DNA from: an uncultured Verrucomicrobiae bacterium
GTDB taxonomy: Bacteria > Verrucomicrobiota > Verrucomicrobiia > Limisphaerales > JAFGQR01
Assembly: GCA_963788655.1 (NCBI GenBank)
Contig: CAWBHS010000059.1
Span: 1 to 64,000, forward strand
Direction of reading: 5' to 3'
Length of the DNA: 64,000 nt
In this document: positions 4,354-38,282 of the stretch, piece by piece
How positions within the stretch are numbered: position 1 is the first letter of the stretch
Layout: each line of letters starts with the position of its first letter
Notes under the pieces: generated by a model
Database searches by the model: none
Told to the model about the DNA's origin: nothing
What the model saw: the letters and a program-made list of their open reading frames with translations, nothing else
Program-made: the position numbers and the translations under genes

Positions 4354-5170
4354 ACCGGGTAGGCGTAGGCGGTCACCCGCCCACGCCCCCCTAAGAACCG
4401 GACTTGAAAGTTTCCCTTCATCACGGCTCAAGCCTCTCCAAGGCCACCCCGGATGCGGGGGACCCGCGTAACCAGGAGGCCGGTGACACCCAAAGGCGTC
4501 ATGGACCTTCCCAATCCCACTTGGCAATACCGGTCGGCGGCCATATCGCGCTCGGCTCCTTTGGGCCGCAGCACCGAGAGGCACCAAGCGACGGGCGTCG
4601 CTCGTCCTATGCTTCTCTCGCTTGAAGGGGTTCCGCTGATTTTCTTGCCAGGAGACACCAGATCGACGTGGGCATATCCGGTCCATTACCGACCGGCCTT
4701 GGCTTGTTCGATCCTCTTCATGCTGCCTCCCCTGGGCCTGCCTTGCGGTCGGCTTGCCTGGATACTCTCCAGGCGGGAACTGGCAGCTTTTCCATGTTCC
4801 GCATTCTCCACAGGATGGGTTAGGTCCACTCTCTACACCGGCGGTGCAACATTCGCGTCGGGCTACGTTAGACAGCCCGAACCTGACCGCTGGCCTTGTT
4901 TTGGCCGGAGCCTTAAAACAGCCTCGTTTGGCTCGTTCCTCTGACGATGCTTGCAAGTGTTCACATGGGTTGACCCTACCATCCGATTCTAGCGCCGCAC
5001 CCGGATTGAGGCTCCCAGGCTGGCTACATTGTCGGGAAGGCTTCACACCCTGGACAGTAGCCTTGCGGCCGCCCGTCCAACGCATGCTTCCCTGGAATAC
5101 CTGCCGCGAAAGGCAGGACTGAGTCAGGTTGCCCATGCTCAGCAGTGATGAATGCGACTTCATGTCACAA
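4354..5170 (-). mobile_element. ORF-less group II intron, copy 1 (817 bp), inserted in an attC core
   Basis: Domain V GAGCCGTGATGAAGGGAAACTTTCAAGTCCGGTTC at 4395-4429. Domain VI has a bulged A 7 nt from the end. An EBS1-like loop contains CTAACG. Near-identical to 60959-61775. No RT ORF. Confidence 0.9.
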
Positions 5171-5276
5171 CTAACGCCCAAGTGAGCGACCGGCGGCGTG
5201 AAGCGTTGGCCCACCCGGAACGCCTCGCGAGAAGCCCAGGGCGTGATCGCCGGTTCGCTCCACTGACTGGTTGTGC
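5171..5276 (-). mobile_element. attC site, core interrupted by intron copy 1
   Basis: Minus strand GCACAAC-CAGTC-AGTGGAGCGAACCGGCG...CGCCGGTCGCTCACT-TGGGC-GTTAG, then the intron, then CC. Confidence 0.85.
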
Positions 5277-18532: not shown

Positions 18533-19514
18533 CGATACCATTTCGCGCGAAGGCTGCTTCAGCGGTGAATGCCCTGGGAATGCCCGAACTAAGCGGCGGC
18601 GCCTCCGGCTGTTCCCTCTCCCCGCGGGAGAGGGTTAGGGTGAGGGGGAACGCGATGTCCGGACCAGGCATCCGCCCGGAAATGGCGGGCGGCACGGCAG
18701 GAACGCTTTTAGACGGTACGCATCGCAGAGCGGTTCCTTCCCCCTCACCCCGGCCCTCTCCCCAGGGGAGAGGGAGCCCGTTCGGCCGCGAGGCACAGGA
18801 ATGGATGGCAGTCCAACCTCCGATACCGTTTCGCGCGAAGGCTGATTGGGCGGGGAATGCTCTGGGAACGCTCAAACCAATTGGCGGCGCCTCCGGCTGT
18901 TCCCTCTCCCCGCGGGAGAGGGTTAGGGTGAGGGGGAACGCGATGTCCGGACCAGGCATCCGCCCGGAAATGACGGGCGGCACGGCAGGAACGCTTTTAG
19001 ACGGTACGCATCGCAGAGCGGTTCCTTCCCCCTCACCCCGGCCCTCTCCCCAGGGGAGAGGGAGCCCGTTCGGCCGCGAGGCACAGGAATGGATGGCAGT
19101 CCAACCTCCGATGCCGTTTCGAGCGAAGGCTGATTGGGCGGGGAATGCTCTGGGAAGCTCGAACCAATTGGCGGCGCCTCCGGCTGTTCCCTCTCCCCGC
19201 GGGAGAGGGTTAGGGTGAGGGGGAACGCGATGTCCGGACCAGGCATCCGCCCGGAAATGGCGGGCGGCACGGAAGGAACGCTTTTAGACGGTACGCATCG
19301 CAGAGCGGTTCCTTCCCCCTCACCCCGGCCCTCTCCCCAGGGGAGAGGGAGCCCGTTCGGCCGCGAGGCACAGGAATGGATGGCAGTCCAACCTCCGATG
19401 CCGTTTCGAGCGAAGGCTGATTGGGCGGGGAATGCTCTGGGAACGCTCAAACCAATTGGCGGCGCCTCCGGCTGTTCCCTCTCCCCGCGGGAGAGGGTTA
19501 GGGTGAGGGGGAAC
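18533..19514. repeat. Tandem array of about 3.4 x 288-bp units, each with two opposed REP-like palindromes
   Basis: Unit starts at 18533, 18821, 19109 and 19396. Palindromes: ccctctccccgcgggagaggg and ccctcaccccggccctctccccaggggagaggg. Confidence 0.95.
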
Positions 19515-19577
19515 AAACCGCTGCACCGATTCATCGGGTTCGGAAGCCCCAAAAACGGTCAGCCTTCTCAAGTTTCC

Positions 19578-22500: not shown

Positions 22501-23535
22501 CGCCGCACGGCGACTCGCTGTTTCCAGAAGGCGGACACGCCGGAGCCGGGATTTCCGCCGGGCGGAATGGCGATCGTCGTTTACGAACACTCCGGCAACT
22601 ACTTCGCCCCGCTGCTGGTGTTCGCCGCGTCGTTGACCAACTGGACCCACGTCGCCGTGGTGTACCAAAACGGGCAACCGAGCCTTTATCTCAACGGCAA
22701 AATGGCGCACCAGGGATTGCCGAGCCAATACCAGGTCCATTCCGGCGTGGCGGCGGCGCAAGCCAGTCCCAGTGGCCCCTTCCAAGGGGAGAAAGGCGAG
22801 TTCCAGGAGTTCGACCGCGCGCTTACGGCGGACGCCATCGCCAAACTGGCCAAGACACCGCCAGCGTCTGCGACAGATTCGCCGCTGCCGATCATCGAAT
22901 TAACCCGCCGCGACAGTGGCGAGCTTGAGGCGATGGTATCAGCCACCGGATCCTATCGGCTGCGCACGGCGGACGGGCAAACGCATTCGTTCGAAGTGCC
23001 GGAACTGCCGGCACCGTTGGAAATCACCGGTCCGTGGCAGGTCCATTTCCCGGCGGATATGGACGTGCCGGAGCAGACGACCATTGCGCAACTGATGTCG
23101 TGGACCGACCACCCCAACGAAACCATCAAGTATTTCTCCGGCACCGCCACCTACATGCGCACCTTCGACTTGCCCGCCGACCGTTTGGGCGCAGGCCAAA
23201 TTGTTCTCCTGGACCTCGGCAGAGTCGAAGCGATGGCGGAAGTGCGCTTGAACGGCAAGCACCTTGGCACCTTCTGGAAGCCGCCGTTTGTGGTGGACAT
23301 CGCCGGTGCCGTGCGACCGGGAGCCAATGCACTGGAGGTCAAGGTATCCAACGTCTGGCTGAATCGCCTCATCGGCGACCAGAAATACCCGAACGGATTC
23401 CCCGGTGAAGACCACCTCCAATTCAAGCCCCACCTCGCCGCCGACGTTGGCATCCGCGCGGACAACCGGCCAGTTCCCTCCGGCCTCATCGGCCCGGTCA
23501 GAATCCTGACCACGCTGGAAATCCAAGTGCCTTGA
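19578..23535 (+). CDS. GH106 alpha-L-rhamnosidase-like protein with an inserted LamG-like domain; one frameshift near 22560
   Basis: KPWVYWYW..NISKEGITRDLE, GWSQSGGPW, DSYE, GEFW, SAEAFT, LDLGRV and PSGLIGPV. Confidence 0.9.
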
Positions 23536-23863
23536 ACTGGCAGCGAAACTGAATTCGGCAGTTGGCGTGGCTGCGGTCGTGAGAACGCGGCCGACTGCCG
23601 CCGTGAAACGCCGGTTCCGAGCGAAGGCAACTCGGTCGCTTTCCGGTGAGCACGGTTTTCCGAAATAGAATGAGCCTCCTCACGTCGGCTGCTACAGATC
23701 GGATGGCGTTTTAAAACAGGCTCTAAGAGCGATGCAATAGCCGTTAAGGATCGGCATTATTAGTTGGTGAAGGTTCGAGAATGTTTCGCATAGGGCCGAT
23801 CGGGAGAACGTTGCCAAGCCCCCATCGGCCTCAGCGGAGGTAGGCCCGCAAGAGCGGCCTGAG

Positions 23864-23892
23864 CTGATGAACGCCACGCGGGTGGGGACGAC
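23864..23892 (-). CRISPR. Solitary degenerate type I-E repeat
   Basis: GTCGTCCCCACCCGCGTGGCGTTCATCAG matches the array repeat at 23 of 29 positions, in the same orientation, 2.8 kb beyond the array end. Confidence 0.75.
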
Positions 23893-23944
23893 CGATGTAA
23901 AACGAGATATATGGATCAGGATTTTAGCACGGGGACGAAACCGT

Positions 23945-24200
23945 TCACTTGAAAATGGTGATCCGTAGGGTGAAGTCCTCCCCGTTACGCGACTTCCACA
24001 CAACGACAAAACTGACACCATCGGCAAAGGACCATTCCTCGCCGGCATGACGATAAAACAAGCCGGCGGCAGCGTGGAAGCGCTCCGGGCCGATCCATTC
24101 CAAGCGCAGGCTCTCGCTGCGCTCGATGGTATCGAGGAAATCGGTGGCGGCCGCGTGACTGTGTCGCACCAGCAATAATCCGTTGACGGGTGGTTCCTGA
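23945..24200 (-). pseudogene. VapC/PIN toxin C-terminal remnant
   Basis: FLDTIERSESLRLEWIGPERFHAAAGLFYRHAGEEWSFADGVSFVV resembles the PIN ..WSFTDCxSF segment. The N-terminus is degraded. Confidence 0.6.
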
Positions 24201-24585
24201 AGCGACCCGCTGGCTCAGGCAGGCGGCGATCACTTTGACACGACGCTGGGACGCATCGTGCCGGCACAAAACGTGCAAATTCTTCTTGCGGCTTTCCACC
24301 GAACACGCCCGCTGAGCGGCCACAAAGCCCAAGGGAAAAAAGGAAGTGACAATTACTCATACGGTCGCTATCCATTCGAAACCATGAGATGCATTTGCCA
24401 AAGCAGGGTGACTGTCGGGGAATTCGCCGAGCGCAAGGACGAGCAAGGCAATCCCAACGGAAAGGAGGACGATGACTGGCGATCCGACCCCGCCCGTGCT
24501 CCCCTCATCAGCCATCGGCCATTCACCGAAGGCGCGCCTCCACGAACTGTTTTGGAACGTGGCGAGTTGATCCCCTGTTGAAATC

Positions 24586-26404
24586 ATGTCCGCGGCCCAA
24601 CGCAAGCGAATCAAAAACCGCCGTGGCGAACGCTGGACGCCGGCCGAACTGAAACAACTCGGCAAAGTGCCCGACTCCGTCCTCGCCCGCCGCACGGGGC
24701 GCACCATCAAGGAAGTCGTGGCGGAGCGCGCACGCAAGCGCATCGCTTTGCCCACGCCGTCGCGCCGCTGGACGGCGCGCGAAATCCGGCTTCTGGGCCG
24801 CTTCAACGACGCCGAGGTTTCCCGGCGTCTGCGTCGGAGTTATGATGGAGTGCGCCGTCAGCGCCTCAATCTCCACATCCCATCCCTCCGCCCCTTGCGC
24901 TCAAAGCGGTGGACGCGACGGGAAGAGAAACTGCTCGGGTACCGCTCCCGATCGGGAACTGGCCGGGCGCCTCCAGCGCAGCGCCTCCTCAGTGCAGGCC
25001 CACCGCATCGCCCTCGGCCTCGGGAAATATCATCTGGAATCGCATCCTTGGACCGATGATGAAGAGAAGTTACTCGGAACGGCGCCTGATGCGGTAATCG
25101 CGGCTCGTCTCAGCCGCAAGCCGCCGGCGGTTTCTGCTCACCGTCGCCTGCTCGGAATTCCGGCCCTGCCGTTCCGGCCACCCAACGCCTGGACCCCTCA
25201 GGAAGAACGCTTGCTGGGGACGCGCAAAGACATCGAAGTCGCTCGTCAGTTGGGACGTCCCTTGGGCGGCGTCCGAGCCCGACGGCGCGCCCTCGGCCTC
25301 CCAAGCCCGGTTTTCCATGTCCCCATTCGCCGCTGGACCCCGGAGGAAGACGCGCTCCTCGGCCAAATGCGCGATGAACAAGTCGCGGCCCGCACCGGGC
25401 ATCCGTTGTCCGGCGTGAAGCAACGGCGCCTCGCCAAGCAGATTCCACTGGCCGTGCGCCAAAAACGCCCGTGGACCCCGGCCGAAGACAAGCTGTTGGG
25501 CACTGCGCCCGACCGCGAGATCGCGGCGCGCCTGAACCGGCCTGTCAAAAGCGTGCAAACCCGCCGCCAGCAAAAACGCCTCGCGCCCTTTGGCGCTCCC
25601 CGCCCATGGACTGACGAGGAAGAAGCTATGCTCGGCACGATGGACGACCGGCGCTTCGCCCGGAAATTCGGCCGCGCGCTCTCGGCGGTAAAAAAGCGGC
25701 GGATCAAACTGGGCAAGCCTGTTTTCCAATCCTCGCATCACTCGTGGACGGCGGAAGACGACAAACTCCTCGGCGTCCGGCCCGATGAAGAAGTTGCCAC
25801 GCTGCTCCACACCACCGTCAAGGGCGTGGTGCATCGCCGCCGGAAATTCAACGTGCCTCCCTGCGCCAAACAACTCCGTCAGGCACGGCTCGGACAAAGC
25901 CGATCCGGGCGCCATCGCCCCGCCGGCGGCCACGGCGGCCTCTACACCGCGGACGAGGAAAACCTGCTCGGCACCCTGCCGGACGAAGAACTGGCCCGCC
26001 GATGGGGGCGCACCACCGCTGCGGTCCAGTCCCGCCGCATCCAACTGGGCATTCCCAAGTGCGATCCCCAACTCCACCAATGGACCGCCGCCGAAGACGC
26101 CCTGCTCGGCACCCTGCCCGATCCGCAACTGGCCGCCCGCCTGGGCTTGACCATTAGTGCTGTGGCTCACCGCCGTCGCCGGCTGGGCATTCCGGTGCAA
26201 TTCGCCCACCGGCGGCCGTGGACGCCGGAAGAGGACGCGCTGTTGGGCACAGCCAGCGACACGGCCATTGCCGCGCGGTTGGGCCGTAAAGTCGAAGTCG
26301 TTTGCGTTCGCCGCCAAAAGCTGGGCATTCCCAACCATTATTGGCTGCACCGCACCGGCGGCCGGCAGCGCAACCTGCGTTCGGAGACCAAGCCAACTGT
26401 TTGA
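24586..26404 (+). CDS. Protein of 12 tandem Myb/HTH-like repeats of about 46 aa (about 600 aa); one frameshift near 24940
   Basis: Repeat consensus WTxEEDxLLGTxPDxxxAxRLGRxxxxVxxRRxxLGIP across ORFs 24586-25059 and 24842-26404. Confidence 0.85.
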
Positions 26405-26451
26405 CGGACCTGCGTGTTTACTTCAATCCTCAACCTCAACATTTAGAAACC

Positions 26452-26532
26452 ATGAATCGCATCTATCAAGGCCGGATAACGAACGTTCAACAACTTGAAC
26501 CTGGGACTTCTGGTAAGAGCCAGGCGACTTGA
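26452..26532 (+). pseudogene. Possible N-terminal remnant of a Cas12b (type V-B) effector
   Basis: MNRIYQGRITNV resembles the N-terminus I recall for the Opitutaceae-type Cas12b (..NRIYQGRV..). Only 26 codons remain. Confidence 0.5.
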
Positions 26533-26706
26533 ACACCATCTGCGTTGACCGCCTTCTTGGCTAACGCCTGCCGCACCTGGAAGAAAGCTGGATAAAGCCA
26601 GCAAAACGGCATCCTCCACTCAAGAAGCCAAGCGGCAACAAACGTCAGGCAGTTCCATCAATGGCCGGAATCGGAAGCTTTGCATCACGGCGGCCTCGCT
26701 TGACCT

Positions 26707-28941
26707 CGCGGGTGGGGACAACACGTTTGATGTCTTCGGCCTGCCGGCCAAGGGCGGACCATCCCCACGCGGGTGGGGACAACGCTGCTGTTGCCACGTT
26801 CTGCTGCGCAATTGCATGCGGACCATCCCCACGCGGGTGGGGACAACGATCACGGCTCAGGAGCGGACAATTGCCGCAGCGGACCATCCCCACGCGGGTG
26901 GGGACAACGTCGTCGTGATGTCGTCGGCGATGCCGTATCCGGACCATCCCCACGCGGGTGGGGACAACAATTCGAGGCTCGTCGCGATCAGCGCGATCAC
27001 CGGACCATCCCCACGCGGGTGGGGACAACGCACGCGTCGCGCCAGAGCCGTCGCCAGTATCCCGGACCATCCCCACGCGGGTGGGGACAACCCAGCATGT
27101 GCACGCCTTGATGGCGCAGAGTTCGGACCATCCCCACGCGGGTGGGGACAACTCGGTGACCTGGCAGAGCAGACTCATCGGCCGCGGACCATCCCCACGC
27201 GGGTGGGGACAACCGAATTATTCGCCGTGCAAGTAACGCGCCCAGACGGACCATCCCCACGCGGGTGGGGACAACGACACGCCTGAGCTTCCACGAGCCG
27301 TAGTCACCGGACCATCCCCACGCGGGTGGGGACAACTCGCCGATGGCCAACGCAGGTACACAGCCATCGGCATGACTCGGACCATCCCCACGCGGGTGGG
27401 GACAACGAGCTCAGATCGCGAATCCATGGTCACGATGGCGCGGACCATCCCCACGCGGGTGGGGACAACCGCAGCTCAGGCTAGAAGCTCATGTCGTGCA
27501 CGGACCATCCCCACGCGGGTGGGGACAACCCAGCGATTCGCCACGAATCCCGTCACGCGTGACGGACCATCCCCACGCGGGTGGGGACAACGCCACCAGC
27601 GCCGGCCACGGTGTTGCCCTGTAGCGGACCATCCCCACGCGGGTGGGGACAACGCCACGATGCCAAAGGGCATTACGATGTTCCACGGACCATCCCCACG
27701 CGGGTGGGGACAACGCAGCCTGGACGCGCGGGCAGCCGTCATGCCGACGGACCATCCCCACGCGGGTGGGGACAACATCCCAGTGCCGGCTCAGTCTGGC
27801 CAGGGAAGTGCGGACCATCCCCACGCGGGTGGGGACAACTCTGATCGACGTATCGCAGGAAGTTGGCGTACGCGGACCATCCCCACGCGGGTGGGGACAA
27901 CGCGGCGAATCTGTCAGCACCAACTGGATTCGGACCATCCCCACGCGGGTGGGGACAACATCAGCATGGTTGTCGCAGGGCATTCGAAGCCGGACCATCC
28001 CCACGCGGGTGGGGACAACTATCGTTGATTGAAGCTTTACAAACGATTGCTGCGGACCATCCCCACGCGGGTGGGGACAACTTAGCCACTCGACGCAGCA
28101 ACGCCTGCGCAACGACGGACCATCCCCACGCGGGTGGGGACAACCGTCCGCAGTCTGGCGCACGCTGATTGCCAGCGCGGACCATCCCCACGCGGGTGGG
28201 GACAACTGATGCGCATGCGTCTTGAACTGCCAGACAACGGACCATCCCCACGCGGGTGGGGACAACCGAGCTGGACGTTCGCATGACTCAGCATGTCGTC
28301 GGACCATCCCCACGCGGGTGGGGACAACGCGCCAGTAGGTTCCCGTTGACGCTCTGATACGCGGACCATCCCCACGCGGGTGGGGACAACCGATCCTGCA
28401 TCCGTGGTTCGCCAGTACCGTGCAACGCGGACCATCCCCACGCGGGTGGGGACAACTGATGCACATGATTCACATGCGCAGGCAACAACGGACCATCCCC
28501 ACGCGGGTGGGGACAACGCCGACTGCATCGTCAGCAACATGATGCAGGGCGGACCATCCCCACGCGGGTGGGGACAACCAGCTCGATCTCGTCAGCGTTC
28601 AGACGCATCTACGGACCATCCCCACGCGGGTGGGGACAACGATGGCATCGCTGACGCTAGAGCCATGCCAGCGGACCATCCCCACGCGGGTGGGGACAAC
28701 TGCCATCGAATCGCTCAGTGACGTCGCGCAATCGCGGACCATCCCCACGCGGGTGGGGACAACGTCAGACAGCTGCGCACTCGGCACAGATCACGGACCA
28801 TCCCCACGCGGGTGGGGACAACCGATCGAGCGCGCGCTCATGCTCAGCTAAGCGGACCATCCCCACGCGGGTGGGGACAACGCCGACGCCAGCGCCTCAG
28901 GTCGTACAAGCTCGGACCATCCCCACGCGGGTGGGGACAAC
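26707..28941 (-). CRISPR. Type I-E CRISPR array: 37 repeats (leader-distal one truncated) and 36 spacers
   Basis: 29-bp repeat GTTGTCCCCACCCGCGTGGGGATGGTCCG. Spacers are 29-41 nt, mostly 31-34. Confidence 0.99.
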
Positions 28942-28991: not shown

Positions 28992-29291
28992 TCAGAAGGG
29001 GCAGTTTTCGGGTTCGATCCATTTTTCGGCCACCAACCACAGACCGGAAAGCTCGGTGTCCCGTCGATGGGTTTCGCCGTAGGTTTCGATTTTGAAGCCC
29101 TGGCAATTGTTGTCACTGGAGACGATGAGCATGCCCAAACCTTCGGCATTGCGCTTGATGTAGGCGAGCGTTTTGTCCCGCGTACGCCGGTTCAGGGTAC
29201 CGACAAACACATTGGGACGTGGCTCAATAAACCAACGCTTGAGCATGCCGCGAATGGCATCCGGGGTATCATTGGCAACGATGACGGTCAC
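28992..29291 (-). CDS. cas2: Type I-E Cas2
   Basis: MTVIVAN..P..IRGMLKRWFIEPRPNVFVG..N.QGF. Confidence 0.95.
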   Translation of the reverse strand: MTVIVANDTPDAIRGMLKRWFIEPRPNVFVGTLNRRTRDKTLAYIKRNAEGLGMLIVSSDNNCQGFKIETYGETHRRDTELSGLWLVAEKWIEPENCPF

Positions 29292-29334
29292 GGGTTGGTT
29301 GGGGGTTGAGCGCTGAGCATTGCGGGTTCACGGT

Positions 29335-30183
29335 TCACGGTTTGGCCTCGGGGGCGAACAGGGCCTCGAGGTCTTTGGGCAGGCGGGCCAGGAGTTTTTC
29401 CTCTTCCACCCGCTGCTTGAGCAGTTTGCGGGTCAATTCACCGTCGTCATCCGGTTTTTGCCGAATGGCCTGGAACGCGGCGGGGATGCTGGTCAGGTGC
29501 TTGTAGAGGTCGGCCACGTCGTAAATGAACGGCAGCGTGCCCGCGTCGTGAACAAACCCGAGACTGGGCAGGTAGCCCAACGAACAGACCACCGCCGCGC
29601 AGAGCGCATAGAGACTGGCATTGGCGGCCGACAGGGCTTTGTTGATGCCGTCGGCAATGTCCCAATTGCTCTTGTTGTAATTGCGGCCTTTCCAGGTGAC
29701 GCCGTGCTTGAGGCCCATTTCGGCGTAAAGCGTCCGCACGCGCAAGCCTTCCATGCCGCGCAATTCCTTGATCGACCGGCTGGCCACGTCCACGTCCGGA
29801 AAACGCATCCGGAACATGCGCCGGGCCACCTCCGTGCGCCGCTTCTTGTCGGCCCACACACTGGCGTGATATCGGGGCATGTCGTTGTCGTGATTGGGCG
29901 CCAGCCCGAAGGCGTAGAACCGCATCACTTCCTCGCCGGTCCAGCAGACGGGCGTGTTGGAGTCGGCGCACGCTTTCATGGCGGCGTGGGTGACGGTAGT
30001 GCCGGGTCCCAGCAGGAGCGCGGACACCGTAGCCACCGGCAACCGGCAGAGCAACCCGTCGGCGCCAATCCATTTCACGCTGGAATCGTCCACCTCGATC
30101 CGGCCATGTTCGAGGTAAATCGGGGTCCAACGGTCGCGGGCCATGGCGAGCGTTTCGAGGGGTGGGCGTTCGAAGATGGGCAT
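29335..30183 (-). CDS. cas1: Type I-E Cas1
   Basis: YLEHGRI, LLLGPGTTVTHAA, LRGMEG, LGFVH and FIYDVADLYK. Confidence 0.97.
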   Translation of the reverse strand: MPIFERPPLETLAMARDRWTPIYLEHGRIEVDDSSVKWIGADGLLCRLPVATVSALLLGPGTTVTHAAMKACADSNTPVCWTGEEVMRFYAFGLAPNHDNDMPRYHASVWADKKRRTEVARRMFRMRFPDVDVASRSIKELRGMEGLRVRTLYAEMGLKHGVTWKGRNYNKSNWDIADGINKALSAANASLYALCAAVVCSLGYLPSLGFVHDAGTLPFIYDVADLYKHLTSIPAAFQAIRQKPDDDGELTRKLLKQRVEEEKLLARLPKDLEALFAPEAKP

Positions 30184-30236
30184 GGGAGGAAGAAAGGATG
30201 AATTATGAATTATGAGGGATGAAGTGCATGAGAACG

Positions 30237-30485
30237 TCAATGGCCGCCATACAGGATTGAATCGATGTCTCGAGGGCGAGTTTTACTTTTGGGGCTGGGG
30301 GTGGCGCGTTGGGCAATGGTGAAGAATGGATCGGCGGCGAGATCGCCCGAAGCGTTGCTGACCAGAGGTCCCAACTGCGCCGCCGGGTGCCCGCGGTACG
30401 AAAGGACAAAACACTCTCCGTCCGCAACGTGCCGAAGGATGCCTTTGGTGTTCTTCCGAATCTCGAGCAGGTTGATGGTCTTCAT
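30237..30485 (-). CDS. Phd/YefM-family antitoxin
   Basis: MKTINLLEIRKNTKGILRHVADGECFVLSYRGHPAAQL has the Phd-type pattern. Confidence 0.8.
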   Translation of the reverse strand: MKTINLLEIRKNTKGILRHVADGECFVLSYRGHPAAQLGPLVSNASGDLAADPFFTIAQRATPSPKSKTRPRDIDSILYGGH

Positions 30486-30752
30486 ACGGAGGAATCGTCA
30501 TCATAGACTACCGATTGCCGCCAGATTCCGTAGCGCAGGGTTGAAATTTGCCAGGTGCTACTCCATTCCAGGCAGGCTTGGGAGTTACGGACGGCTTGCC
30601 GAATGCAATTGGGCGATAAAGCAGATTGAAAATCTGCGCTACAGAAAAGTGTAGCGCCCGCCGCGTTTACGTCGCGCGAACTCACCGGCGAGGATACCTG
30701 CGCTGCGAACTCGCTGACGAAGTCCACCCTGTAGAATTGGATCATTTCGAGT

Positions 30753-31523
30753 TCAGCCTGATTGGGGGCGTTTGAGTTGAATGCGGCGCGGAGCGAACTC
30801 TCGTCCTACGGTGCCGCTGGAACGGCCATTGCCGAAACTCACTGGTTGGTCGTTGAACGTGGCTTGGACATCATCCAGTTGCTCGACTTCCACTTCCCGT
30901 TCGAATTGCGTCAAGGGGAGGACTGGCAGGCCCGCCTGCTTCAAGAGTTGCTCAAACACTGCGTTCATGCTGTCGCCCAGCACCGGGGCAATGGGGGAGG
31001 CCGGCAGGCAGCATTTACGTCCCAGCCAAATTCCCCAAATGGGATTGTGTAAGCCGGCGGCGATGGTTTCCAATGCGGGCTGGTTACCCTCCAGCAAAAC
31101 ACCGAAGCGAGCGTCCATCAGATATTCCCGCTCGGTCACCACGGCGTTTTCCTTCGGACCACCACTGGCCTTGCGGGGAATGAACTGGGCATGGGTCGTC
31201 TTGTCGTAACCGCCGCCAACAGTGTGGTAGTCCCTCAAACGTCGGCTGAGTCGCGGAACGTAAGCGGCTTCCGAACGCCGCGCACGGCTTCGCGGCAGCG
31301 AAACGCTGGTCAGCCGCAACGCCGCGATGGCGGCCAAGGTTTCCCGTTCGCGGGCCGAGCCTTTGGGCACTCCCAATGCCGCCGCCAGCAGACCGGCAAT
31401 GCCGCTTTTGCTGGGATGATGATTGGTGCCACGCCGTTGGAAGCGTGAGGCGGTGCCCCACGATTGCAATGGGCCATCAAGCAGGAAGCCGAGGCAGCCG
31501 TTAGCAGGATGTTCAGAGGACAT
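30753..31523 (-). CDS. cas5e: Type I-E Cas5 (CasD)
   Basis: LDGPLQSWG..PSKSGIAGLLAAALG, DYHTV and LGRKCC. Confidence 0.97.
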   Translation of the reverse strand: MSSEHPANGCLGFLLDGPLQSWGTASRFQRRGTNHHPSKSGIAGLLAAALGVPKGSARERETLAAIAALRLTSVSLPRSRARRSEAAYVPRLSRRLRDYHTVGGGYDKTTHAQFIPRKASGGPKENAVVTEREYLMDARFGVLLEGNQPALETIAAGLHNPIWGIWLGRKCCLPASPIAPVLGDSMNAVFEQLLKQAGLPVLPLTQFEREVEVEQLDDVQATFNDQPVSFGNGRSSGTVGREFAPRRIQLKRPQSG

Positions 31524-32541
31524 GGTTCACCAGTTCCTGGGTAAAGGTGTTGAGGTCGCTTTCGGGGATTTCCAGTTCCTTGACGGGCGCGAGGCTCCAG
31601 GTCTGCTTGAGCTGCGCATGGTGTTTCTTGACTCGGTCGATAGCTGCTTTTTCCCAGCCGCTGCGCGACCAGACCGGTTCTTCGAAGGCATTGATCAATT
31701 GCACCGGTTGGCCCTGATCTTTGTACAAGCCCAACACGTAACTGGGGAAGGTGTGGGCGTTCATCGAGTTCTTGCGAGCACCCGGCACGGCCATCAGCGT
31801 GGCCCGGATGAAGGCGTCCACGACTTTTTGCCGCTGTTCCTGAGTCAAACCGCCCAGGTGCTCGTCGTCGGCCAGCAAGCCGAGATTGAGCGCGGTATAA
31901 CGATAGTAAAGGGCAGACGTGAATTCCAGGGTGCCAATCATGCCGGCGCCGGCGTCTTCCGCGTCGCCCTTGCGATCATCCACGGCCGAAAAGAAATCGA
32001 TGTCGTTCTCAGCTTGGTGAACGGACAGGGCGTGACTGAACATGGCGGCGCCTTCGACGTTCAGCGTGGCGTCATTGGCGACCATGCGACCGAACAGGGC
32101 GATGTCAGCGGCATCCAATCGCGAGGCTTTGCGGCAAGCCTTTTTGGGGTCTTCGCCGCCGGCGACTGCGGTCGCGATTTGATCGATTTCGCCCGGTGAC
32201 AAATAGACGGCGGTCGTGACTTGCTCGGGATTTTTGCTATCGGGCTTGGAAAACTTCTCCAAGATTTCCGTGGCCTTGGCGGTTGCGACTTTTTCGTCCA
32301 AGCCTTTAGCTTTGAGTGCGGTGGTGAACGGCTCGAGCAGAATACGGCTGCGAATGCCGGCAAACAAAGGATCGGGCTCCAGTTCGCGGGCCAGCAGCCG
32401 CACGGCGCGCTTCAAACACTGGCTGGACAGACGGGCCCGATTGACGCCGCCGAACACGGCGCTTTTGGGCGCGCCAACGTCGTCACGGTTCAAGCAGGAG
32501 ACGGGGAAGGATTGGAGAATATGGAGTTCGATGAGTTTCAT
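31513..32541 (-). CDS. cas7e: Type I-E Cas7 (CasC/Cse4)
   Basis: IELHILQSFPVSCLNRDDVGAPK, SSQCLKR, DIALFGRM and DFFSAVDD. Confidence 0.97.
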   Translation of the reverse strand: MKLIELHILQSFPVSCLNRDDVGAPKSAVFGGVNRARLSSQCLKRAVRLLARELEPDPLFAGIRSRILLEPFTTALKAKGLDEKVATAKATEILEKFSKPDSKNPEQVTTAVYLSPGEIDQIATAVAGGEDPKKACRKASRLDAADIALFGRMVANDATLNVEGAAMFSHALSVHQAENDIDFFSAVDDRKGDAEDAGAGMIGTLEFTSALYYRYTALNLGLLADDEHLGGLTQEQRQKVVDAFIRATLMAVPGARKNSMNAHTFPSYVLGLYKDQGQPVQLINAFEEPVWSRSGWEKAAIDRVKKHHAQLKQTWSLAPVKELEIPESDLNTFTQELVNHVL

Positions 32542-32612
32542 GCGATTGGTTGGTGGTTATTAGTTAGGTGTTGAGAGTTGAAACATGCGAGGGGGAGCGA
32601 TAGCTTTTGCCC

Positions 32613-32819
32613 ATGAGCACGGTAAAAGAAATCGAAGCTGCCATTGAAAAACTGCCCCGCCAAGAATTGTGGCAGTTGAAGGCGCATTTGGACTGCCGCT
32701 GCGAAGCGGAATGGGACGCGCAAATTGAAGAGGATGCACGGCCGGACGGTCCGTTGGACAATCTAGCACAGGAAGCCATCGCTGAATTCAAGGCGGGCCG
32801 CTGCACTCCGTTGCCGTGA
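32613..32819 (+). CDS. Putative antitoxin
   Basis: MSTVKEIEAAIEKL...WDAQIEEDA...G.LD.LA..A; overlaps the toxin start (GTGA). Confidence 0.75.
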   Translation: MSTVKEIEAAIEKLPRQELWQLKAHLDCRCEAEWDAQIEEDARPDGPLDNLAQEAIAEFKAGRCTPLP

Positions 32820-33077
32820 GGCACGCCACCACACCGGATTTCTGGAGGCACTATCGGTTGCTGCCGTCTAACATTCGGCGGTTGGCGCGCAAGAACTACC
32901 GGCTGCTGCGGGAGAATCCCCAGCATCCGAGCCTGCACTTCAAGCCGGTAGGGCCGCATACCTGGTCGGCTCGTGTCGGAATTAAATATCGGGCGTTGGC
33001 GGCCCAGTCCGGGGCGAACTTCATCTGGTTTTGGATTGGGTACTCATGACGAATACGAGCGCTTAATCGGCGGCTGA
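32816..33077 (+). CDS. RelE/ParE-superfamily toxin; frameshift near the C-terminus
   Basis: FW..Y..LP, HPSLHFK, WSARVG..YRAL and WFWIG, with THDEYERL restored by removing one base. Confidence 0.8.
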
Positions 33078-33719
33078 AAGCGGCGCCAACGCCAGCAGGC
33101 CGAAGCCGAACGACTTGGCGGAACCGATGCCGTGGGAAAACGCTTCGAGGAACTTGGCGCGGTCGGACACGGTCAACACGCCTTTGAATTCCATGCCCTG
33201 CAACACGCCGTGCATGGCTTTGGCCGCCGAACCGTTTCCCGGCTTGAAGAAGCGTTCCTTACGCGCCGGATGAATGCGCAGCTTGGCGGTGTCCACTTGG
33301 AAGCCCCCAGCGTCAGCTTTCCGCGCCAGCCAGGCTTCGAGGGCTTCACGCTGCGTCAGCGGCACGCGGACGCCATTCTTTTTGCGCGTGCCATCCGGAA
33401 GATCCACACGCAATTTGCGGGTCGGGTTCGCCCGCAACTGGAAGGCGTATTGGCGGTGATCAAAGAAATCCTCCGGGATCGACTTGGTTTCCCAGGTATC
33501 GGTCGGACACCAATCCGGTCGGGCCGGTGCGTCAGAGGACAACAGCAACAGTTGAAAGCCCCGGTCTTGCACATCCAGGCGCGTGAGAAAATCGCGAGGC
33601 GCATCGTCACGTCCAGGAAATGCTTCCCACACGGCTTGGTGCCAGCGGTAGGCGTCGCGCAGACCGCGTTTGAAGGCCAGTTCGTAATCGACAAAAGCGC
33701 GGGAGAGAAACTGCGTCAT
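33063..33719 (-). CDS. cas6e: Type I-E Cas6 (CasE/Cse3)
   Basis: DAYRWHQAVW, FQLRANPT and the GIGSAKSFGFGLL glycine-rich loop. Confidence 0.95.
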   Translation of the reverse strand: MTQFLSRAFVDYELAFKRGLRDAYRWHQAVWEAFPGRDDAPRDFLTRLDVQDRGFQLLLLSSDAPARPDWCPTDTWETKSIPEDFFDHRQYAFQLRANPTRKLRVDLPDGTRKKNGVRVPLTQREALEAWLARKADAGGFQVDTAKLRIHPARKERFFKPGNGSAAKAMHGVLQGMEFKGVLTVSDRAKFLEAFSHGIGSAKSFGFGLLALAPLSAAD

Positions 33720-34264
33720 GGCGCGACCTCCATTTCCGCAGTGGGCGTTGGCTCGCTCTCGGGCAGTGCGGGCGCGCTCCAATACTCTCTCGCCCATTCC
33801 ACCAGAACCCGTTTTGGATTCGACGCAAACGCGCTCAGGTCATCGAACAACCGGGCATAGTCAATGGCTTTGCCCGAAGCCTTGGCCATTTTGGCGAGGT
33901 GCATGATTTGGTTGCACAAGTCGGGCTGCGTTTCACAGGCGAGCAGACGCCGGAACCGGCGTTCAAACGCCTCTTCACGTCCTTGCGCCAGATGCCGGCA
34001 GGTAACGCCGAAGTTGCCGATTGGCTGATGCTCGGGATGCAGCGCGTATAGCGCGCCGACCGTTTGGTACACCAACCGAAGCTTGGGCTCGAAGGCAAGC
34101 GAGCCGGCCAACGCGCCCAAAGCCGGCCAGGCTTGTGATTCGGTGGTGGGACTCAGCGCCCGGCGCAGTTCCGCCAGGCGGCCGCGATCTTTTTTCTCGG
34201 TCAGCTTAAGCAGCCGTTCGACGAACGACTGGGCCAATGGTGATGGTTCGGATGTTTTTTTCAT
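33716..34264 (-). CDS. cse2: Type I-E small subunit Cas11 (Cse2/CasB)
   Basis: RGRLAELRR, FERRFRRLL, IDYARLFDDL and WAREYW. Confidence 0.9.
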   Translation of the reverse strand: MKKTSEPSPLAQSFVERLLKLTEKKDRGRLAELRRALSPTTESQAWPALGALAGSLAFEPKLRLVYQTVGALYALHPEHQPIGNFGVTCRHLAQGREEAFERRFRRLLACETQPDLCNQIMHLAKMAKASGKAIDYARLFDDLSAFASNPKRVLVEWAREYWSAPALPESEPTPTAEMEVAP

Positions 34265-35689
34265 GTAGATTCCTTGGGGGGTTTTGGCGGACGAAGTTTG
34301 CGCAGTCCGACGGCAAAAGCTTGAATCTGGCGGGGTGTTTCCCGGGCACACGCATATTGATAGGCTTCATGAGCAGCCCGGCGAACCGAACGTGTCCAAT
34401 CGACATCGGCTTGCCAAAAGTCTTTACCCTCCAGCAGTGCGACATTCTGGATCACTGCCATGAGCTCGGGCCAGTGCTGGTCCAACGCGTTCCAGTAATG
34501 GCGTTCGGCCCGAGCTCGATCCGGCGGAGCTTTCAACACGGCGGCACAGTCGCTGACCGCTTTGCCCAAGCGGTCACGCCAGGCATTGGCCAATTCGACG
34601 CCCCGTTCGTAAATGGGCTGCCGGTCTTCTAAAAGCAGTTCGCGCGGCACGTCGTAAACCGCTTCCACCGTGTCTTCGTATTTACCTTTGCCGTCGGTCA
34701 CGAGCGCGCCGAGCCAGATCCGTTGGAAGGGCGCGGGGTCAGGTCGCTGGAGAGGCAGCGGCCGGTTGCCTTTCAAATGCTGCCGCGCTTCCACGACATG
34801 CTGCAAGTCCCGCCAGGGTTGCTTGTTCAAGTCCGCGCGCAGGAGGTAGCGTTCCTCTTTGTCCTTTTTGGAAATGGTGAGCACCGTTGCTGCCGCTTCG
34901 CGGTATTCCTCGAACATTGGATGCGAAATGCCAGGCTTGGCCATTTCAAAGAAGAGCCCGTTCTCGTTCAGCCAAATCTGTCGGGTGACCGGGACCAATC
35001 GTCCAAGGAAACTCAACGTGACATTGTGGACGAAGTCTTTGTCATCGAAATCGATGGGAGCTTCCCACACGGGACGGCCAAATCCCTGCGGAAAAACTCG
35101 GCCAGCGGTTTCACGGTCCACCCCGTTGGCGAGGATGCTGTGCAGCAGGCTGTCACCCACGAGCCACGTTTGGAGAAAATGGCGGTCAAGGCACGGTGAC
35201 TTGCCAGTGTAACCTGCGCCAATGCTGGCGGACATGTTTTGAAAACTCAGCAACGCCAGCGCAAACTCGGCAGGTTCCAAATGCCGCGCCCCGCCGCCTT
35301 CGTGGTCAAACAGGGTAGGATTGTTCCCGCTGGCGCGATGGAACAGCATTTTGCTGGCTTCGAACTCGGACATGGCAGTGGCGCGGCACTGCAAGAACCG
35401 CGGCCCCGAGCCGAACAGTTCGAAAGCCGAGCGCCATTTCTCAAGATATGCCGCCGCCGCTTGCGGCAATTTATCCGCAGCTTCGTCCCAGCCCCATTCA
35501 TCGGCGGGGCCGTCCAAGGCTCGCTTGTGCCACGCAGACGAGCAGACGCATCAAGGCTATGCGTTCGTGCGGACGCACGGCCAGGTCGGCAATCCGGTCG
35601 CCCTCGCGAAACACGTCAGCGAGACTGATCAGACGGTTGGTTCCGTCGCGATAGGTGACTGGGATCCAAAGATCAAAACCAAGATTCAT
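34261..35689 (-). CDS. cas8e: Type I-E large subunit Cas8e (Cse1/CasA); frameshift near 35520
   Basis: MNL..D.WIPV, RLL, FELF..GPRFLQ and SGNNPTLFDH; located directly after cas3. Confidence 0.9.
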
Positions 35690-38282
35690 CGTCTTCTTCT
35701 TTCCATGCAGGTTCAGTTGGTTTGGCCACCCGAGCGATTTTCACTCCGGTGCTGGTTTGGTATTCGAGCGCAAAAGCCGGATCGCTGGCGGGAATGGAGA
35801 TGGCGCCGTCGTCAGGGTCGAGCACCCCAAAGACTGCCGTGCCTTTGAAATGCAGGCGAAGCCAGTCAGGTTGCGCCTCGGTCCCTAAAGCCGAACGGAT
35901 GGCGTAGAGCGGTAGCCGCACCGAATTACGGTGAATGGCCGCTGCCACCGGGAATCGCCATTCAAATGAACTGGCGGCAAGCGATTCACCATTAAGGAAA
36001 CGAAGGGCAACGTCGCCGTGGTTGGTGGGTTCCGGCGCCGCCGTCAGCAGCAGCAGGTTGCCGCTGGGAAAATCGTCCCACCGCGTTTGCACGCCTTCCT
36101 CGTCGCGAAGTTGAATGTTTTCGAAGATGTTGGTTCGGCTTACCGCCTTGTTTCGCATGGCAGCAATTTGTTTGGCCAATTCGCGGCGAAATGAAATCCA
36201 GCCGGGTGGTTCATCGTTTTCATTTTGCTCCGCATACGTCGCCTCCAATAGCGCGCGTATGTCATTCGGCAGCTTTACCGCTTGCCGGTGCTGCCACACC
36301 TCGAGCGAACGCAGCAGCACATAAGGCGCATAAACGCGCGCCGACTTGCCCAAGGCTGCTTTGATGGTTTTGGCTTCAGCCGTGACCGGAAACTCTGGGC
36401 GCAGAATCCACACTTCCGGATGGCTGCGAGGACGTTGTTCCCGCGGATGCCGCCACAGTCTGCCCAGGCGTTGCAGCAGCATGTCCGTCGGCGCGAGGTC
36501 GGTAATCAACAAGTCGGCATCAATGTCCACGCTTTGTTCCACGACCTGCGTGGCCACGAGAACGCAGCCGCGCGGGCGAGCGGCATTACCCTTTCTCAGC
36601 GCTGCCATCCATTTCGTTTCCTGCTGCTCGCGTTGGAACTGAGGGAAACGGCTGTGCAACAATCCGATTTCCGGGCCACCTTCGCGCCGGGTTCCGTTCA
36701 ATTGCTCGTAAAGCGTCTGCGCTTCGGCGACAGTATTCTTGATTAACAGCACACAAGCCCCGGCCTCGGCGGCGGCGCAGATGGGTTCCAGCAGTTCCGC
36801 ATTCTCTTGCGGACGGCAAGAAACCTGAACGGTGCGATGTGAGTCTCTGGAGGTTTCCGCAGAATGTGATTCAACTTCTCCTCGTTCGTTCACCAGGCTG
36901 ACCAACGGGTAGGCATCCGTTGGCGACACGGATTTGGCACCGGCGAGCGCCAGCAGTTCCGTTCGTCGTTGAGCCGTGAGCGTGGCGGATAATATGATGA
37001 CTGTGCATCGCAAGGCCAGCAGCCGCTCAATCAGCCTATCCATGACCGAACCGGTGTAAGCATCGTAGGAATGAACCTCGTCGAGAATGACGACCTTGCC
37101 CGCCAAGCCAAACAATCGAACGGCCAGATATTTGGCTGCCACGGCTCCCAGCAGCGCCTGGTCAATGGTCCCGACTCCGTAGCGGGCCAGCAGTGCCTGT
37201 CGCGAAGACGCAAACCAGGAACGGCCTTGCTCAGCATGCTCATTGGCCTCGGCATCCGCTGCGGCCGGCAACAGCCGAATTTGCAAGTCTTGCTGGAGCC
37301 AGGAATTGGCGTGCGCCAGGGGATGGTCGGTTTCCTCGGCCAGCGCGTTGCGAAGGAAAGCCTCCACGCGCTCGTGGATGCGATTGCTCGTCAATTGCGT
37401 CGGCAGCGCGAAATACACGCCATGGTTTTGGCCGTTCGCAATCAACCGATAGGCAGCGGCCAAGGCGGCTTCCGTTTTTCCGCAACCCATCGGCGCTTCG
37501 ATTATGTAAAGGCCGGGTTGTCGGATGGTCTCCAGGCACACCTGCTGGAGCGAATTGGCCTCAAACCGCGGAGAATCGCCATCCGCAAAGAGTTCTCCGA
37601 ACTCCACTCCCAAACGCAATGCACCTTTGCCCCAGCGAATGGTCCGCAGCGCCGACTCGGCGAGCTTGGCGGATTTCTCCGGTGTGTAAGTCGTCCCGAG
37701 CGGGAAGAAGAATTCGTTGGATCCCAACCAATCGCTCACGGTGATCCACCCGGCTACCAGCAGCAATTGCTCGTCAGATTCGGGAGGCAACTCGGGCAAC
37801 GATCCGAATAGGCCCGTCAACCAAGTGAACAACTTTTCTCGCTCTGGTTGGAGCCCGGTTGCTTCGATTTCCTTCCGGCCAACAGGGCCTTGCCCCAGAA
37901 ACCGTCCGTGGTGACCGCCCACCGCCACGGCCCAATTTTGAATTTTGCCGCGAGGAAGCTTCCTGACGAAGAAGTTCTGGCTGACGGCGGCATGGTTGCT
38001 TTCCGAAAACTGCCAACCCGACGCAATCGCTTCCTCCGCCAGCCCATTTTCCACCAGCCAGTCCGGGCATTTGCGCAAGAACCCAACCGTGATTTTTCCT
38101 ATGTCGTGGCCGGCGGCAAGAATGGAGCATCCCGGCGGCAGTATCCGCCTTACAGATTCTGGCAAGCAGGAGCGTATCGCCTCCCCCACGCACCCCACAT
38201 TGAGACAGTGATCCTGCACGCTGAGGCCGGGCTTGCCGTCTGGCGTGGTTTTCGCCCAAAAATGAATTCCTTCCCAGTTCAT
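35673..38282 (-). CDS. cas3: Cas3 HD nuclease-helicase
   Basis: WAKT, H..V, HDIGK, HHG, SDWLGS, APMGCGKTE, DEVH, SAT, HSRF, ATQVVEQS and QRLGRLWRH. Confidence 0.98.
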   Translation of the reverse strand: MNWEGIHFWAKTTPDGKPGLSVQDHCLNVGCVGEAIRSCLPESVRRILPPGCSILAAGHDIGKITVGFLRKCPDWLVENGLAEEAIASGWQFSESNHAAVSQNFFVRKLPRGKIQNWAVAVGGHHGRFLGQGPVGRKEIEATGLQPEREKLFTWLTGLFGSLPELPPESDEQLLLVAGWITVSDWLGSNEFFFPLGTTYTPEKSAKLAESALRTIRWGKGALRLGVEFGELFADGDSPRFEANSLQQVCLETIRQPGLYIIEAPMGCGKTEAALAAAYRLIANGQNHGVYFALPTQLTSNRIHERVEAFLRNALAEETDHPLAHANSWLQQDLQIRLLPAAADAEANEHAEQGRSWFASSRQALLARYGVGTIDQALLGAVAAKYLAVRLFGLAGKVVILDEVHSYDAYTGSVMDRLIERLLALRCTVIILSATLTAQRRTELLALAGAKSVSPTDAYPLVSLVNERGEVESHSAETSRDSHRTVQVSCRPQENAELLEPICAAAEAGACVLLIKNTVAEAQTLYEQLNGTRREGGPEIGLLHSRFPQFQREQQETKWMAALRKGNAARPRGCVLVATQVVEQSVDIDADLLITDLAPTDMLLQRLGRLWRHPREQRPRSHPEVWILRPEFPVTAEAKTIKAALGKSARVYAPYVLLRSLEVWQHRQAVKLPNDIRALLEATYAEQNENDEPPGWISFRRELAKQIAAMRNKAVSRTNIFENIQLRDEEGVQTRWDDFPSGNLLLLTAAPEPTNHGDVALRFLNGESLAASSFEWRFPVAAAIHRNSVRLPLYAIRSALGTEAQPDWLRLHFKGTAVFGVLDPDDGAISIPASDPAFALEYQTSTGVKIARVAKPTEPAWKEEDDESWF

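Follow-up and report, generated by a model that had tools for sequence, protein, structure and literature searches.

Modular DNA-binding arms that read long sites are a known principle of I-TevI-type enzymes, and the D5 protein of phage T5 (T5.118, 255 aa), recorded as a DNA-binding protein required for replication and late transcription and reportedly treated as such by McCorquodale in 1979, is built of several W-T-x-E-type helix-turn-helix (HTH) units. T5 D5 is described as a DNA-binding protein in one paper (PMC12630848), and a 2026 preprint reports that the D5 HTH fold binds retron msDNA (PMC13405049). In archaea, the tandem HTH proteins Cbp1 and Cbp2 bind CRISPR repeats, according to three papers (PMC3597662, PMC3315313, and PMC10883916). 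In the present study, a stretch of 64,000 nucleotides (nt) from an uncultured Verrucomicrobiae bacterium of the order Limisphaerales (contig CAWBHS010000059.1 of assembly GCA_963788655.1; hereafter the window) was analysed for a gene encoding a comparable but longer chain, which lies between a GH106 gene and a type I-E CRISPR array. The joint reading that best fits the observations, with a probability of roughly 0.6, is that it is a frameshifted, D5-like gene of 12 HTH modules, whose intact relatives would bind long double-stranded DNA sites on behalf of neighbouring DNA-processing genes, and that the copy in the window is a relic of a decayed type V-B locus. Members of the family are recurrent but sporadic accessories upstream of cas4-cas1 (in I-G-like and I-B-like loci) or of cas12b (in V-B loci), and they also occur beside TrwC relaxase genes.

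Two overlapping plus-strand open reading frames (ORFs), 24586..25059 in frame 1 and 24842..26404 in frame 2, are spanned by one unbroken repeat pattern. The frame switches between LLG and TAPD at CTC GGG T ACC (24934-24943), and a 1-nt insertion in 24937-24940 accounts for the switch, so that the position 24940 given in the first-pass annotation for the frameshift proved exact. The joined reading comprises 605 residues (118 + 487) and 12 units, which start at residues 17, 62, 109, 155, 202, 250, 296, 341, 387, 453, 499, and 545 and are spaced by 45-48 residues, except for 66 between units 9 and 10. The joined protein is strongly basic, with 15.7% Arg, a pI of 11.6, and a net charge of about +67. 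At the DNA level the gene holds a 36-nt repeat family in 8 copies, a hidden Markov model (HMM) of the repeat found 10 + 3 units in the two pieces, and the repeat period is common to hundreds of homologs, which places the repeats far beyond chance. The 12 tandem units of about 46 aa reported earlier from the letters are thereby borne out by the unit table, the DNA repeats, the repeat HMM, and the homologs sharing the period; the twelve recognition-helix strings listed at that stage are the same as those in the unit table, and the absence of a catalytic domain was confirmed by a Pfam scan of the window protein, which found none. An intact homolog in a Verrucomicrobiia metagenome-assembled genome (L049:9995-11848, referred to as L049b; 618 aa, 13 units) is colinear with both pieces, the N-terminal piece aligning to its residues 6-124 and the C-terminal piece to 127-567. 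Global alignment of the joined reading with L049b gave 45.8% identity over 578 columns, and the homolog has no gap at the junction, indicating one gene split by a 1-nt insertion. L049b itself belongs to a pair of tandem paralogs (L049:8586-11848) of 475 and 618 aa (10 and 13 units) that overlap by 16 nt and have no cas gene within 6 kb. No paralog of the HTH-array gene was found in the genome of the window. Across 23500-26800, no sigma-70-like promoter was found, and one terminator-like site was recorded on the minus strand, fewer than in shuffled sequences.

Structure prediction assigned the repeats to a single fold class. The whole-protein AlphaFold2 model, made with 96 homologs, reached a predicted local distance difference test (pLDDT) of 83.7 and a predicted template modelling score (pTM) of 0.50, with three helices per unit and linkers of lower confidence, and a single-unit model made with 132 other repeats (pLDDT 90.6) placed the helices at unit residues 5-10, 16-23, and 27-37. 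The DNA-binding domain (DBD) of GcrA from Caulobacter (PDB 5yiu/5yiv) ranked first in both exhaustive structural comparisons, with Z 6.0 and a root-mean-square deviation (rmsd) of 1.6 A over 43 aligned residues in the first and Z 5.6, rmsd 1.3 A, 39 aligned residues, and 36% identity in the second (19-36% across the matches), and Foldseek placed it against the single unit at TM 0.78/0.68. It was followed by Reb1, R2R3-MYB, Cdc5, WER, c-Myb repeats, homeodomains, and transposase HTH domains at Z 4-5, and the top 20 rows of the single-unit comparison were all Myb/SANT, homeodomain, or transposase HTH domains (Z 4.2-5.6). With the whole model as query, Foldseek ranked the SNAPc chain 7xur_A first. 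At the sequence level, the Pfam model Myb_DNA-binding (PF00249) gave 32.6 bits summed over the C-terminal piece, above the cut-off of 24.4, which none of the individual stretches reached. A single-repeat profile run against PDB sequences returned nothing significant, Myb proteins appearing at E 0.1-1, and an NCBIfam search gave nothing above noise. On these models, each unit is predicted to be a three-helix Myb/SANT/homeodomain-like HTH, with the third helix as the putative recognition helix; the earlier assignment of the units to the Myb/SANT type, made from the helix 1 signature, is thus upheld by the AlphaFold models, the nearest solved folds, and the summed Myb score.

The units differ from both of their nearest structural relatives. 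Like eukaryotic Myb/SANT proteins (c-Myb R1-R3, R2R3-MYB, Reb1, and SNAPC4), they carry the W-T-x-E-E-D helix 1 signature and a three-helix fold in tandem repeats of the kind that sits on DNA (structural Z 4.2-5.0), whereas the segment of helices 1 and 2 is shorter in the window protein, which has 12 units rather than 1-5. The core of a canonical Myb repeat is formed by three regularly spaced tryptophans; this triad was not found in the units, in which only the first (W3) is nearly invariant, the other nearly invariant positions being L11, G12, D16, A20, and R34. As in the window unit, the end of helix 3 of the GcrA DBD is followed by an LG-type turn, but GcrA consists of a single DBD plus a sigma-70-binding domain, compared with 12 units here. 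Membership in the GcrA family was considered and rejected, as the Pfam model misses the gene and the likeness is structural only: at E <= 10, PF07750 matched 4 weak places in the genome of the window, none of them in the HTH-array gene.

In terms of family, the gene matches PHROG 323 ('transcriptional regulator, D5-like'), with E 5.9e-58 (197.9 bits, 6 stretches) for the C-terminal piece and E 2.3e-7 for the N-terminal piece; homologs match at E 1e-40 to 1e-117, and the intact L049b at E 1.3e-117. By these profile matches, the predicted protein is assigned to the D5-like HTH-array family. A search with the C-terminal piece recovered 383 matching proteins among 8000 scored candidates, all annotated as 'hypothetical', and in a library clustered at 50% the same piece matched 4161, 1708, and 245 representatives at E 1e-3, 1e-10, and 1e-30, respectively. 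It matched 13 of 60 other genomes of Limisphaerales and, at E 1e-10, 1 of 400 genomes in an even sample of the phylum. The family is strongly expanded in Limisphaerales. No relative was found in the metagenome contigs searched with the C-terminal piece or in the viral contigs searched with the alignment of a 468-aa subfamily. PADLOC gave only a weak 'mad1' HTH match. The 20 longest family members (up to 934 aa) showed HTH matches only and no nuclease domain. In addition, the HTH array matches the Pseudomonas fluorescens megaplasmid pQBR103 (L116, NC_009444.1 306369-307286) in 8 places with an identity of about 30%, each annotated as hypothetical, and other Pseudomonas megaplasmids have 2-7 such places each.

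The same repeat unit was also detected, by tblastn and BLASTP, in GIY-YIG homing endonucleases of Vibrio phages (eugene 12A10 and helene 12B3), where it forms the C-terminal two thirds of the protein. The 346-aa enzyme of phage eugene has its GIY-YIG domain at residues 1-85 (Pfam E 3.5e-10), followed by about 5 units, and aligns to the window repeats with BLASTP E 3e-16 and 29% identity over 249 columns. These enzymes share with the window protein tandem units of the pattern W..E...LLGT..D..IA..LG.S...V..RR..LGIP, and they differ in their N-terminal GIY-YIG nuclease and about 5 repeats, as opposed to 12 repeats and no nuclease. T5 D5, for its part, has 255 residues in about 4-5 longer units, unlike the 12 compact 46-aa units of the window protein, which is moreover chromosomal in Verrucomicrobiota and has relatives in cas operons and beside relaxases. 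Judging from these sequence matches, the repeat module appears to be a DNA-binding unit already used by nature in chains for holding long sites, and the suggestion of a multi-module, polydactyl DNA reader is plausible in view of the same repeats in the GIY-YIG endonuclease arms and the PHROG 323 match. In the literature searched, no paper was found on long bacterial HTH arrays or on their place in cas operons, the D5 papers concerning T5 only, and the passages compared in the 2025 CRISPR classification (PMC12669027) mention no such gene. The repeat module and its phage family are already known under the label 'D5-like'.

Genomic context was surveyed at 39 other unique loci, made up of 20 stretches from 14 related genomes and 20 loci reached through the 468-aa subfamily alignment (1 duplicate), which were annotated with a simple ORF caller, Pfam, PADLOC, tblastn with cas queries, and a k-mer array finder. 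In 9 of the 39 (L021, L026, L034, L042, L045, L046, L048, L051, and L056), cas genes adjoin the HTH gene, and these cas-linked members span at least 4 sequence clusters. Four of them (L021, L042, L048, and L034) have the same order, namely cas3, cas8g, cas7g (GSU0053), cas5/6g, the HTH array, a cas4-cas1 fusion, cas2, and a CRISPR array, with the distance from the HTH stop to the cas4-cas1 start ranging from an overlap to about 40 nt. The upstream half of this I-G-like order is seen in L026, type I-B-like genes (Cas8b and Cas7) precede the same adaptation module in L045, and L046 is a rearranged cas locus. In L051, a 337-aa member is followed by an intact Cas12b (Pfam C2c1 domains, E 5.8e-21), cas4-cas1, cas2, and a 38-repeat array, while the arrangement in L056 mirrors the window: 31 nt past a 284-aa member stands a cas12b stub of 38 codons, behind which lies a Cas9-like gene (PADLOC E 1.9e-12). 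Within the 468-aa subfamily, 6 of the 9 loci with usable flanks lie inside cas operons. In a survey of cas12b loci, a three-unit fragment was additionally found to end 58 nt ahead of an intact cas12b (L098). Outside cas loci, a TrwC relaxase gene adjoins the HTH gene in 5 of the 39, often with integrases, a coupling protein, or PIN genes, and the remaining loci have ordinary chromosomal neighbours. By this repeated, position-specific adjacency, the HTH-array gene is a CRISPR-associated accessory.

The window itself appears to carry the remains of such an arrangement. The ATG of a cas12b stub lies at 26452, 48 nt past the HTH-array stop, and the stub scored 33.6 bits against an N-terminal HMM of 112 Cas12b proteins, compared with 7.3 bits for the best of 1000 shuffles (112 of the 120 homologs collected with a Verrucomicrobiia Cas12b begin with M.RI[YF].G[RK]). 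No Cas12b-like sequence was found past the stub in any frame, no Cas12b was found elsewhere in the genome (86% complete), and a Cas4-Cas1 fusion query had no match there. A type V-B locus, with full-length cas12b together with cas4-cas1, cas2, and an array, is thus absent from the window. The Cas12b-like start less than 50 bp downstream that the first-pass annotation had pointed out is accordingly a genuine N-terminus, but one cut to 26 codons with no working Cas12b behind it. Since cas12b is cut to this length and the HTH gene carries a 1-nt insertion, and since the succession of an HTH gene and a cas12b start recurs in L051, L098, and L056, the window gene most likely derives, as a relic, from a type V-B locus that has decayed.

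Taken together, and by analogy with T5 D5 and the arms of the GIY-YIG endonucleases, the HTH arrays would act as follows. The modules would be joined by short Pro-rich linkers, the third helix of each would be set in the major groove, and the chain would hold on to an extended run of double-stranded DNA by many contacts, each of them weak. Such a protein may serve as a regulator or an architectural factor for the adjacent DNA-processing genes; both this role and the long-site binding are inferred. In the window, a type V-B locus of the L051 kind would have decayed beside a living I-E system, with cas12b, cas4-cas1, and cas2 lost and the HTH gene frameshifted.

Several observations weigh against this reading. 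In 30 of the 39 context loci there is no nearby cas gene, and neither L049 nor L050, which hold the closest intact relatives with context, has one beside the HTH gene. Among the best 30 cas4-cas1 loci from 300 genomes of the order, inspected over 1.5 kb upstream, only 3 have an HTH-array gene there (3 of 26 when the count is limited to loci with 1.38 kb or more of upstream sequence), and the gene precedes cas12b in 1 of the 11 cas12b loci that retain the N-terminus together with 1.19 kb or more ahead of it. The six rows with the gene do not cluster on a quick Cas4-Cas1 tree: they require 5 changes, and 131 of 500 shuffles gave a value as low. The presence or absence of the HTH gene makes no difference to the conservation of the repeats or of the leaders, which are about 204 nt long. 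T5 D5 itself shows only weak similarity in direct comparisons (BLASTP E 2e-4 over 36 residues in one comparison; hhalign probability 23%), and phage T5 was not recovered by tblastn at E 1e-3 with the intact homolog as query. For the whole model and the single repeat alike, Foldseek gave no match at E <= 1e-3, a frequent outcome with 40-residue domains, and the structural Z scores reached only the modest 4-6 to be expected of about 40 residues and were used for the fold class only. Lastly, the frameshift may have arisen in assembly, and the gene would then be no pseudogene. The equal conservation of leaders implies that the cas systems do not need the HTH gene, and its rarity, scatter on the Cas4-Cas1 tree, and equal leaders together point to a dispensable accessory that has been repeatedly gained or lost. 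With 3 of 30 cas4-cas1 loci and 1 of 11 cas12b loci, the HTH-array gene is no core cas gene of any subtype. The consistent CRISPR context of homologs for which a neighbourhood survey had been proposed was therefore found in part: the 9 loci beside cas genes support it, but the association is sporadic and the gene is no regular component.

The alternative that survives best, a real possibility though not the favoured one, is that the gene is intact in the organism and that the frameshift stems from an assembly or sequencing error in the GGG run; a programmed +1 shift would be a far less probable cause. The surplus base sits in GGGT, a short G run, neither piece is interrupted elsewhere or departs from the repeat consensus, and the source assembly is in 115 contigs and 86% complete; contigs from public reads cover only parts of 25039-26174, outside 24937-24940. 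The neighbouring GH106 alpha-L-rhamnosidase gene (19134-23535, plus strand; Pfam E 2.4e-226) also appears to switch frame near 22500-22620, its first ORF ending in an Arg/Gly/Pro-rich tail and its second beginning in the middle of Laminin_G_3 at profile position 74. This switch could be a second indel near the HTH gene, bearing on assembly quality, yet the missing first half of Laminin_G_3 was not detected in the other frame. The adjacent cas12b, moreover, is truly truncated, consistent with decay of the whole locus and hence with the relic.

It appears unlikely that the arrays have no functional tie to CRISPR at all and instead belong to mobile elements and genomic islands, as general regulators that bind DNA or as proteins that coat the nucleoid, coming to lie near CRISPR loci because variable regions collect both. 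The extreme positive charge would suit unspecific DNA coating, phage families match (PHROG 323), and, besides the majority of context loci without cas genes, other settings include TrwC relaxase, integrases, insertion sequence (IS) elements, and PIN, HNH, and NERD genes, as well as Pseudomonas megaplasmids with many copies, such as the 8 places of pQBR103. Set against this is the precise and recurrent position upstream of cas4-cas1 or cas12b, on the same strand, at distances from an overlap to tens of nt and in at least 4 clusters, together with the proportion of cas operons among usable loci of the 468-aa subfamily. As a rough estimate only, cas genes and the few kb around them take up less than 1% of a genome, far below the share of 9 of 39.

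A role as a CRISPR DNA factor of the Cbp1 or IHF kind, binding repeats or leader and aiding the transcription of long arrays or integration by Cas1-Cas2, seems more doubtful still. The gene stands directly upstream of cas4-cas1-cas2 in I-G-like and I-B-like loci, and archaeal Cbp1/Cbp2 offer a precedent of tandem HTH proteins tied functionally to CRISPR arrays and similar in fold, the Cbp2 structure 2lvs being among the matches at Z 4.0 and in a Foldseek row as well. That match, however, is no better than those of dozens of other HTH domains, and no sequence relationship to Cbp1/Cbp2 was found (profile E 0.57). Cbp1/Cbp2 also differ in being archaeal and in having 2-3 repeats, and they are encoded away from cas operons. 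The low frequency beside cas4-cas1 and the equal conservation of leaders and repeats speak against such a factor, as does the fact that the family accompanies I-G, I-B, V-B, II, and I-E loci with unrelated repeats; the comparison of leaders from loci with and without the HTH gene yielded no distinguishing motif, and no sign of a leader-specific target was seen in the DNA. As for the leaders themselves, those of the I-G-like loci L061-L090 of the order, located 3' of cas2, are of one type and about 204 nt long; they contain a TCTTTGACA box and an inverted repeat, GCGAGCGG...CCGCTCGC, and lead into repeats of 36-37 nt whose last letters are CCCCGTTGAAGC.

Whether the repeats spell a code was assessed from their variation within and between proteins. 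TALE repeats are near-identical and carry a two-residue code. The long chain of small DNA-reading modules resembles TALE and poly-zinc-finger arrays, but the fold is another, and the 132 repeats are 29-64% identical to unit 11, with no evident code. Among the 32 sequences of the 468-aa subfamily, whose mean column identity is 75%, each unit keeps its own identity from species to species, which favours a defined, ordered binding surface. The columns most variable between units (14, 17, 21, 28, 32, 35, 36, and 38) are also the least conserved among the 32 orthologs. A programmable reader of the TALE or zinc-finger type, with a few hypervariable residues per repeat and a repeat order that spells a DNA address, would be in line with the fixed scaffold (W3, L11, G12, D16, A20, V30, and R34), with the clustering of four variable positions (28, 32, 35, and 36) on one face of helix 3, and with the retention of each repeat's identity in place across the orthologs. 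It is nevertheless very unlikely, given the divergence of the repeats, unlike that of TALE repeats, and the low ortholog conservation of the variable helix 3 positions (0.48-0.75, compared with about 0.85-1.0 elsewhere), which fits relaxed constraint equally well; the lower-confidence linkers and the pTM of 0.50 predict no rigid superhelix. The per-repeat code proposed in the first-pass annotation is therefore not supported, and by sequence the units resemble a chain of diverged HTH domains rather than a cassette code.

The slimmest chance is given to descent from a free-standing homing endonuclease gene that lost its nuclease, a selfish (or formerly selfish) cassette homing to cas 5' ends, for which the fusion of the same repeats to GIY-YIG in Vibrio phages, the sporadic presence at one fixed intergenic position scattered on the Cas4-Cas1 tree, a cas12b-like start of the HTH ORF in L051, and a possible duplicated cas12b 5' stretch flanking the window gene can be cited, but which is opposed by the want of a nuclease domain in the window protein and in the 20 longest members and by a flanking duplication that is not significant at the DNA level.

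With regard to the last two signals, the HTH ORF of L051 opens with MNRIHQGK (L051:9215-9241), like the Cas12b behind the HTH gene. For the degenerate stretch upstream of the window gene, the DNA match to 26443-26475 scored 24, not above the shuffle maximum of 29, so that a duplicated cas12b start flanking the HTH gene was set aside as a weak observation only. The two features hint, with weak statistics, at insertion at, or recombination through, the cas12b 5' end. The segment 23536-26693, which runs from the GH106 gene to the I-E array, thus holds the orphan repeat match, this weak cas12b-5'-like stretch, the broken HTH gene, and the cas12b stub (Table 1).

Table 1. Features of the window around the HTH-array gene
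Feature	Position	Strand	Remarks
Orphan 19-nt I-E-repeat match	23874..23892	+	89% identical to the terminal repeat at 26704-26722; from a repeat search
Possible second, degenerate cas12b-5'-like stretch (weak)	24384..24485	+	HMM 9.7 bits, compared with 5.1 for the best of 1000 shuffles
HTH-array gene, N-terminal piece	24586..24939	+	Frame 1, 118 codons; units 1 and 2 and helix 1 of unit 3; from translation
Frameshift site	24937..24940	+	1 surplus base in GGGT, within the unit 3 motif between LLG and T
HTH-array gene, C-terminal piece	24941..26404	+	Frame 2, 487 codons plus stop; remainder of unit 3 to unit 12
cas12b stub	26452..26532	+	26 codons of a typical Cas12b N-terminus, then stop
Type I-E CRISPR array	26694..28941	-	36 perfect 29-nt repeats (26755-28941) and a degenerate trailer repeat (26694-26722); leader adjoins cas2
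Type I-E cas operon	28992..38282	-	cas3, cse1, (cse2), cas6e, cas7, cas5, Phd-like ORF, cas1, cas2

The CRISPR array next to the gene belongs to a different system. It begins 290 nt past the HTH-array gene, which confirms the adjacency to CRISPR noted in the first pass; the array, on the other hand, is of type I-E, is convergent with the gene, and meets it with its trailer end. Its orientation is taken from the likeness of the repeat to the E. coli I-E repeat and from the degenerate repeat at the 26694 end. The cas operon was assigned from Pfam matches to Cas3_HD/Cas3-like_C_2, CRISPR_Cse1, CRISPR_assoc (Cas6e), Cas_CT1975, Cas_Cas5d, Cas_Cas1, and Cas_Cas2CT1978, whereas cse2 was assigned by position only, to an 87-aa ORF without a library match. 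On these matches, the neighbour is identified as a complete type I-E CRISPR-Cas system (cse2 by position), and it is separate from the HTH gene, with no partnership indicated. In this operon, cas6e lies between the presumed cse2 and cas7, an order unlike that of E. coli, and an 82-aa ORF between cas5 and cas1 (30240-30485, minus strand) has a weak match to Phd/YefM antitoxins (PhdYeFM E 5.4e-4). The orphan match corresponds to the 3' two thirds of the I-E repeat and lies 2.8 kb past the array end, on the other side of the HTH gene, which suggests either that the array was formerly longer or that the HTH/cas12b segment was inserted into the array trailer.

Farther from the gene, a near-identical peptide (..GGASGCSLSPRERVRVRGN..) is encoded twice at the 5' end of the GH106 ORF (19134-19560, plus strand), which indicates two copies of a short DNA repeat upstream of the real GH106 start. 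In addition, two copies of a group II intron, about 56.6 kb apart, were identified on the minus strand at 4354-5118 and 60959-61723 (Rfam RF02012 63.2 bits and RF00029 49.6 bits each), and the ORF at 3922-5214 (minus strand) may encode the intron reverse transcriptase.

As the copy in the window is probably a relic beside a cas12b stub, it is the wrong place to seek a working system, and the pattern at the level of the family is of greater interest. With 4161 cluster representatives, the tandem HTH arrays, which comprise from 5 to about 19 modules, make up a very large family that, in the sources searched, is named only by a phage label. If long-site reading holds true, they would constitute a natural modular DNA-binding scaffold distinct from zinc fingers and TALEs. 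A bolder and rather improbable extension is that D5-like HTH arrays are an undescribed class of CRISPR-Cas accessories, with Cas4-Cas1-Cas2 and Cas12b loci recruiting long-site readers to recognise or bend leader or promoter DNA in the manner of a dedicated IHF or Cbp1, relaxases doing likewise at oriT, and the repeat order serving as an evolvable address. The recurrent placement of the family directly upstream of cas4-cas1 and cas12b and beside relaxases suggests that spacer acquisition, V-B expression, and conjugation involve an unstudied layer, be it one of control or one of DNA architecture.

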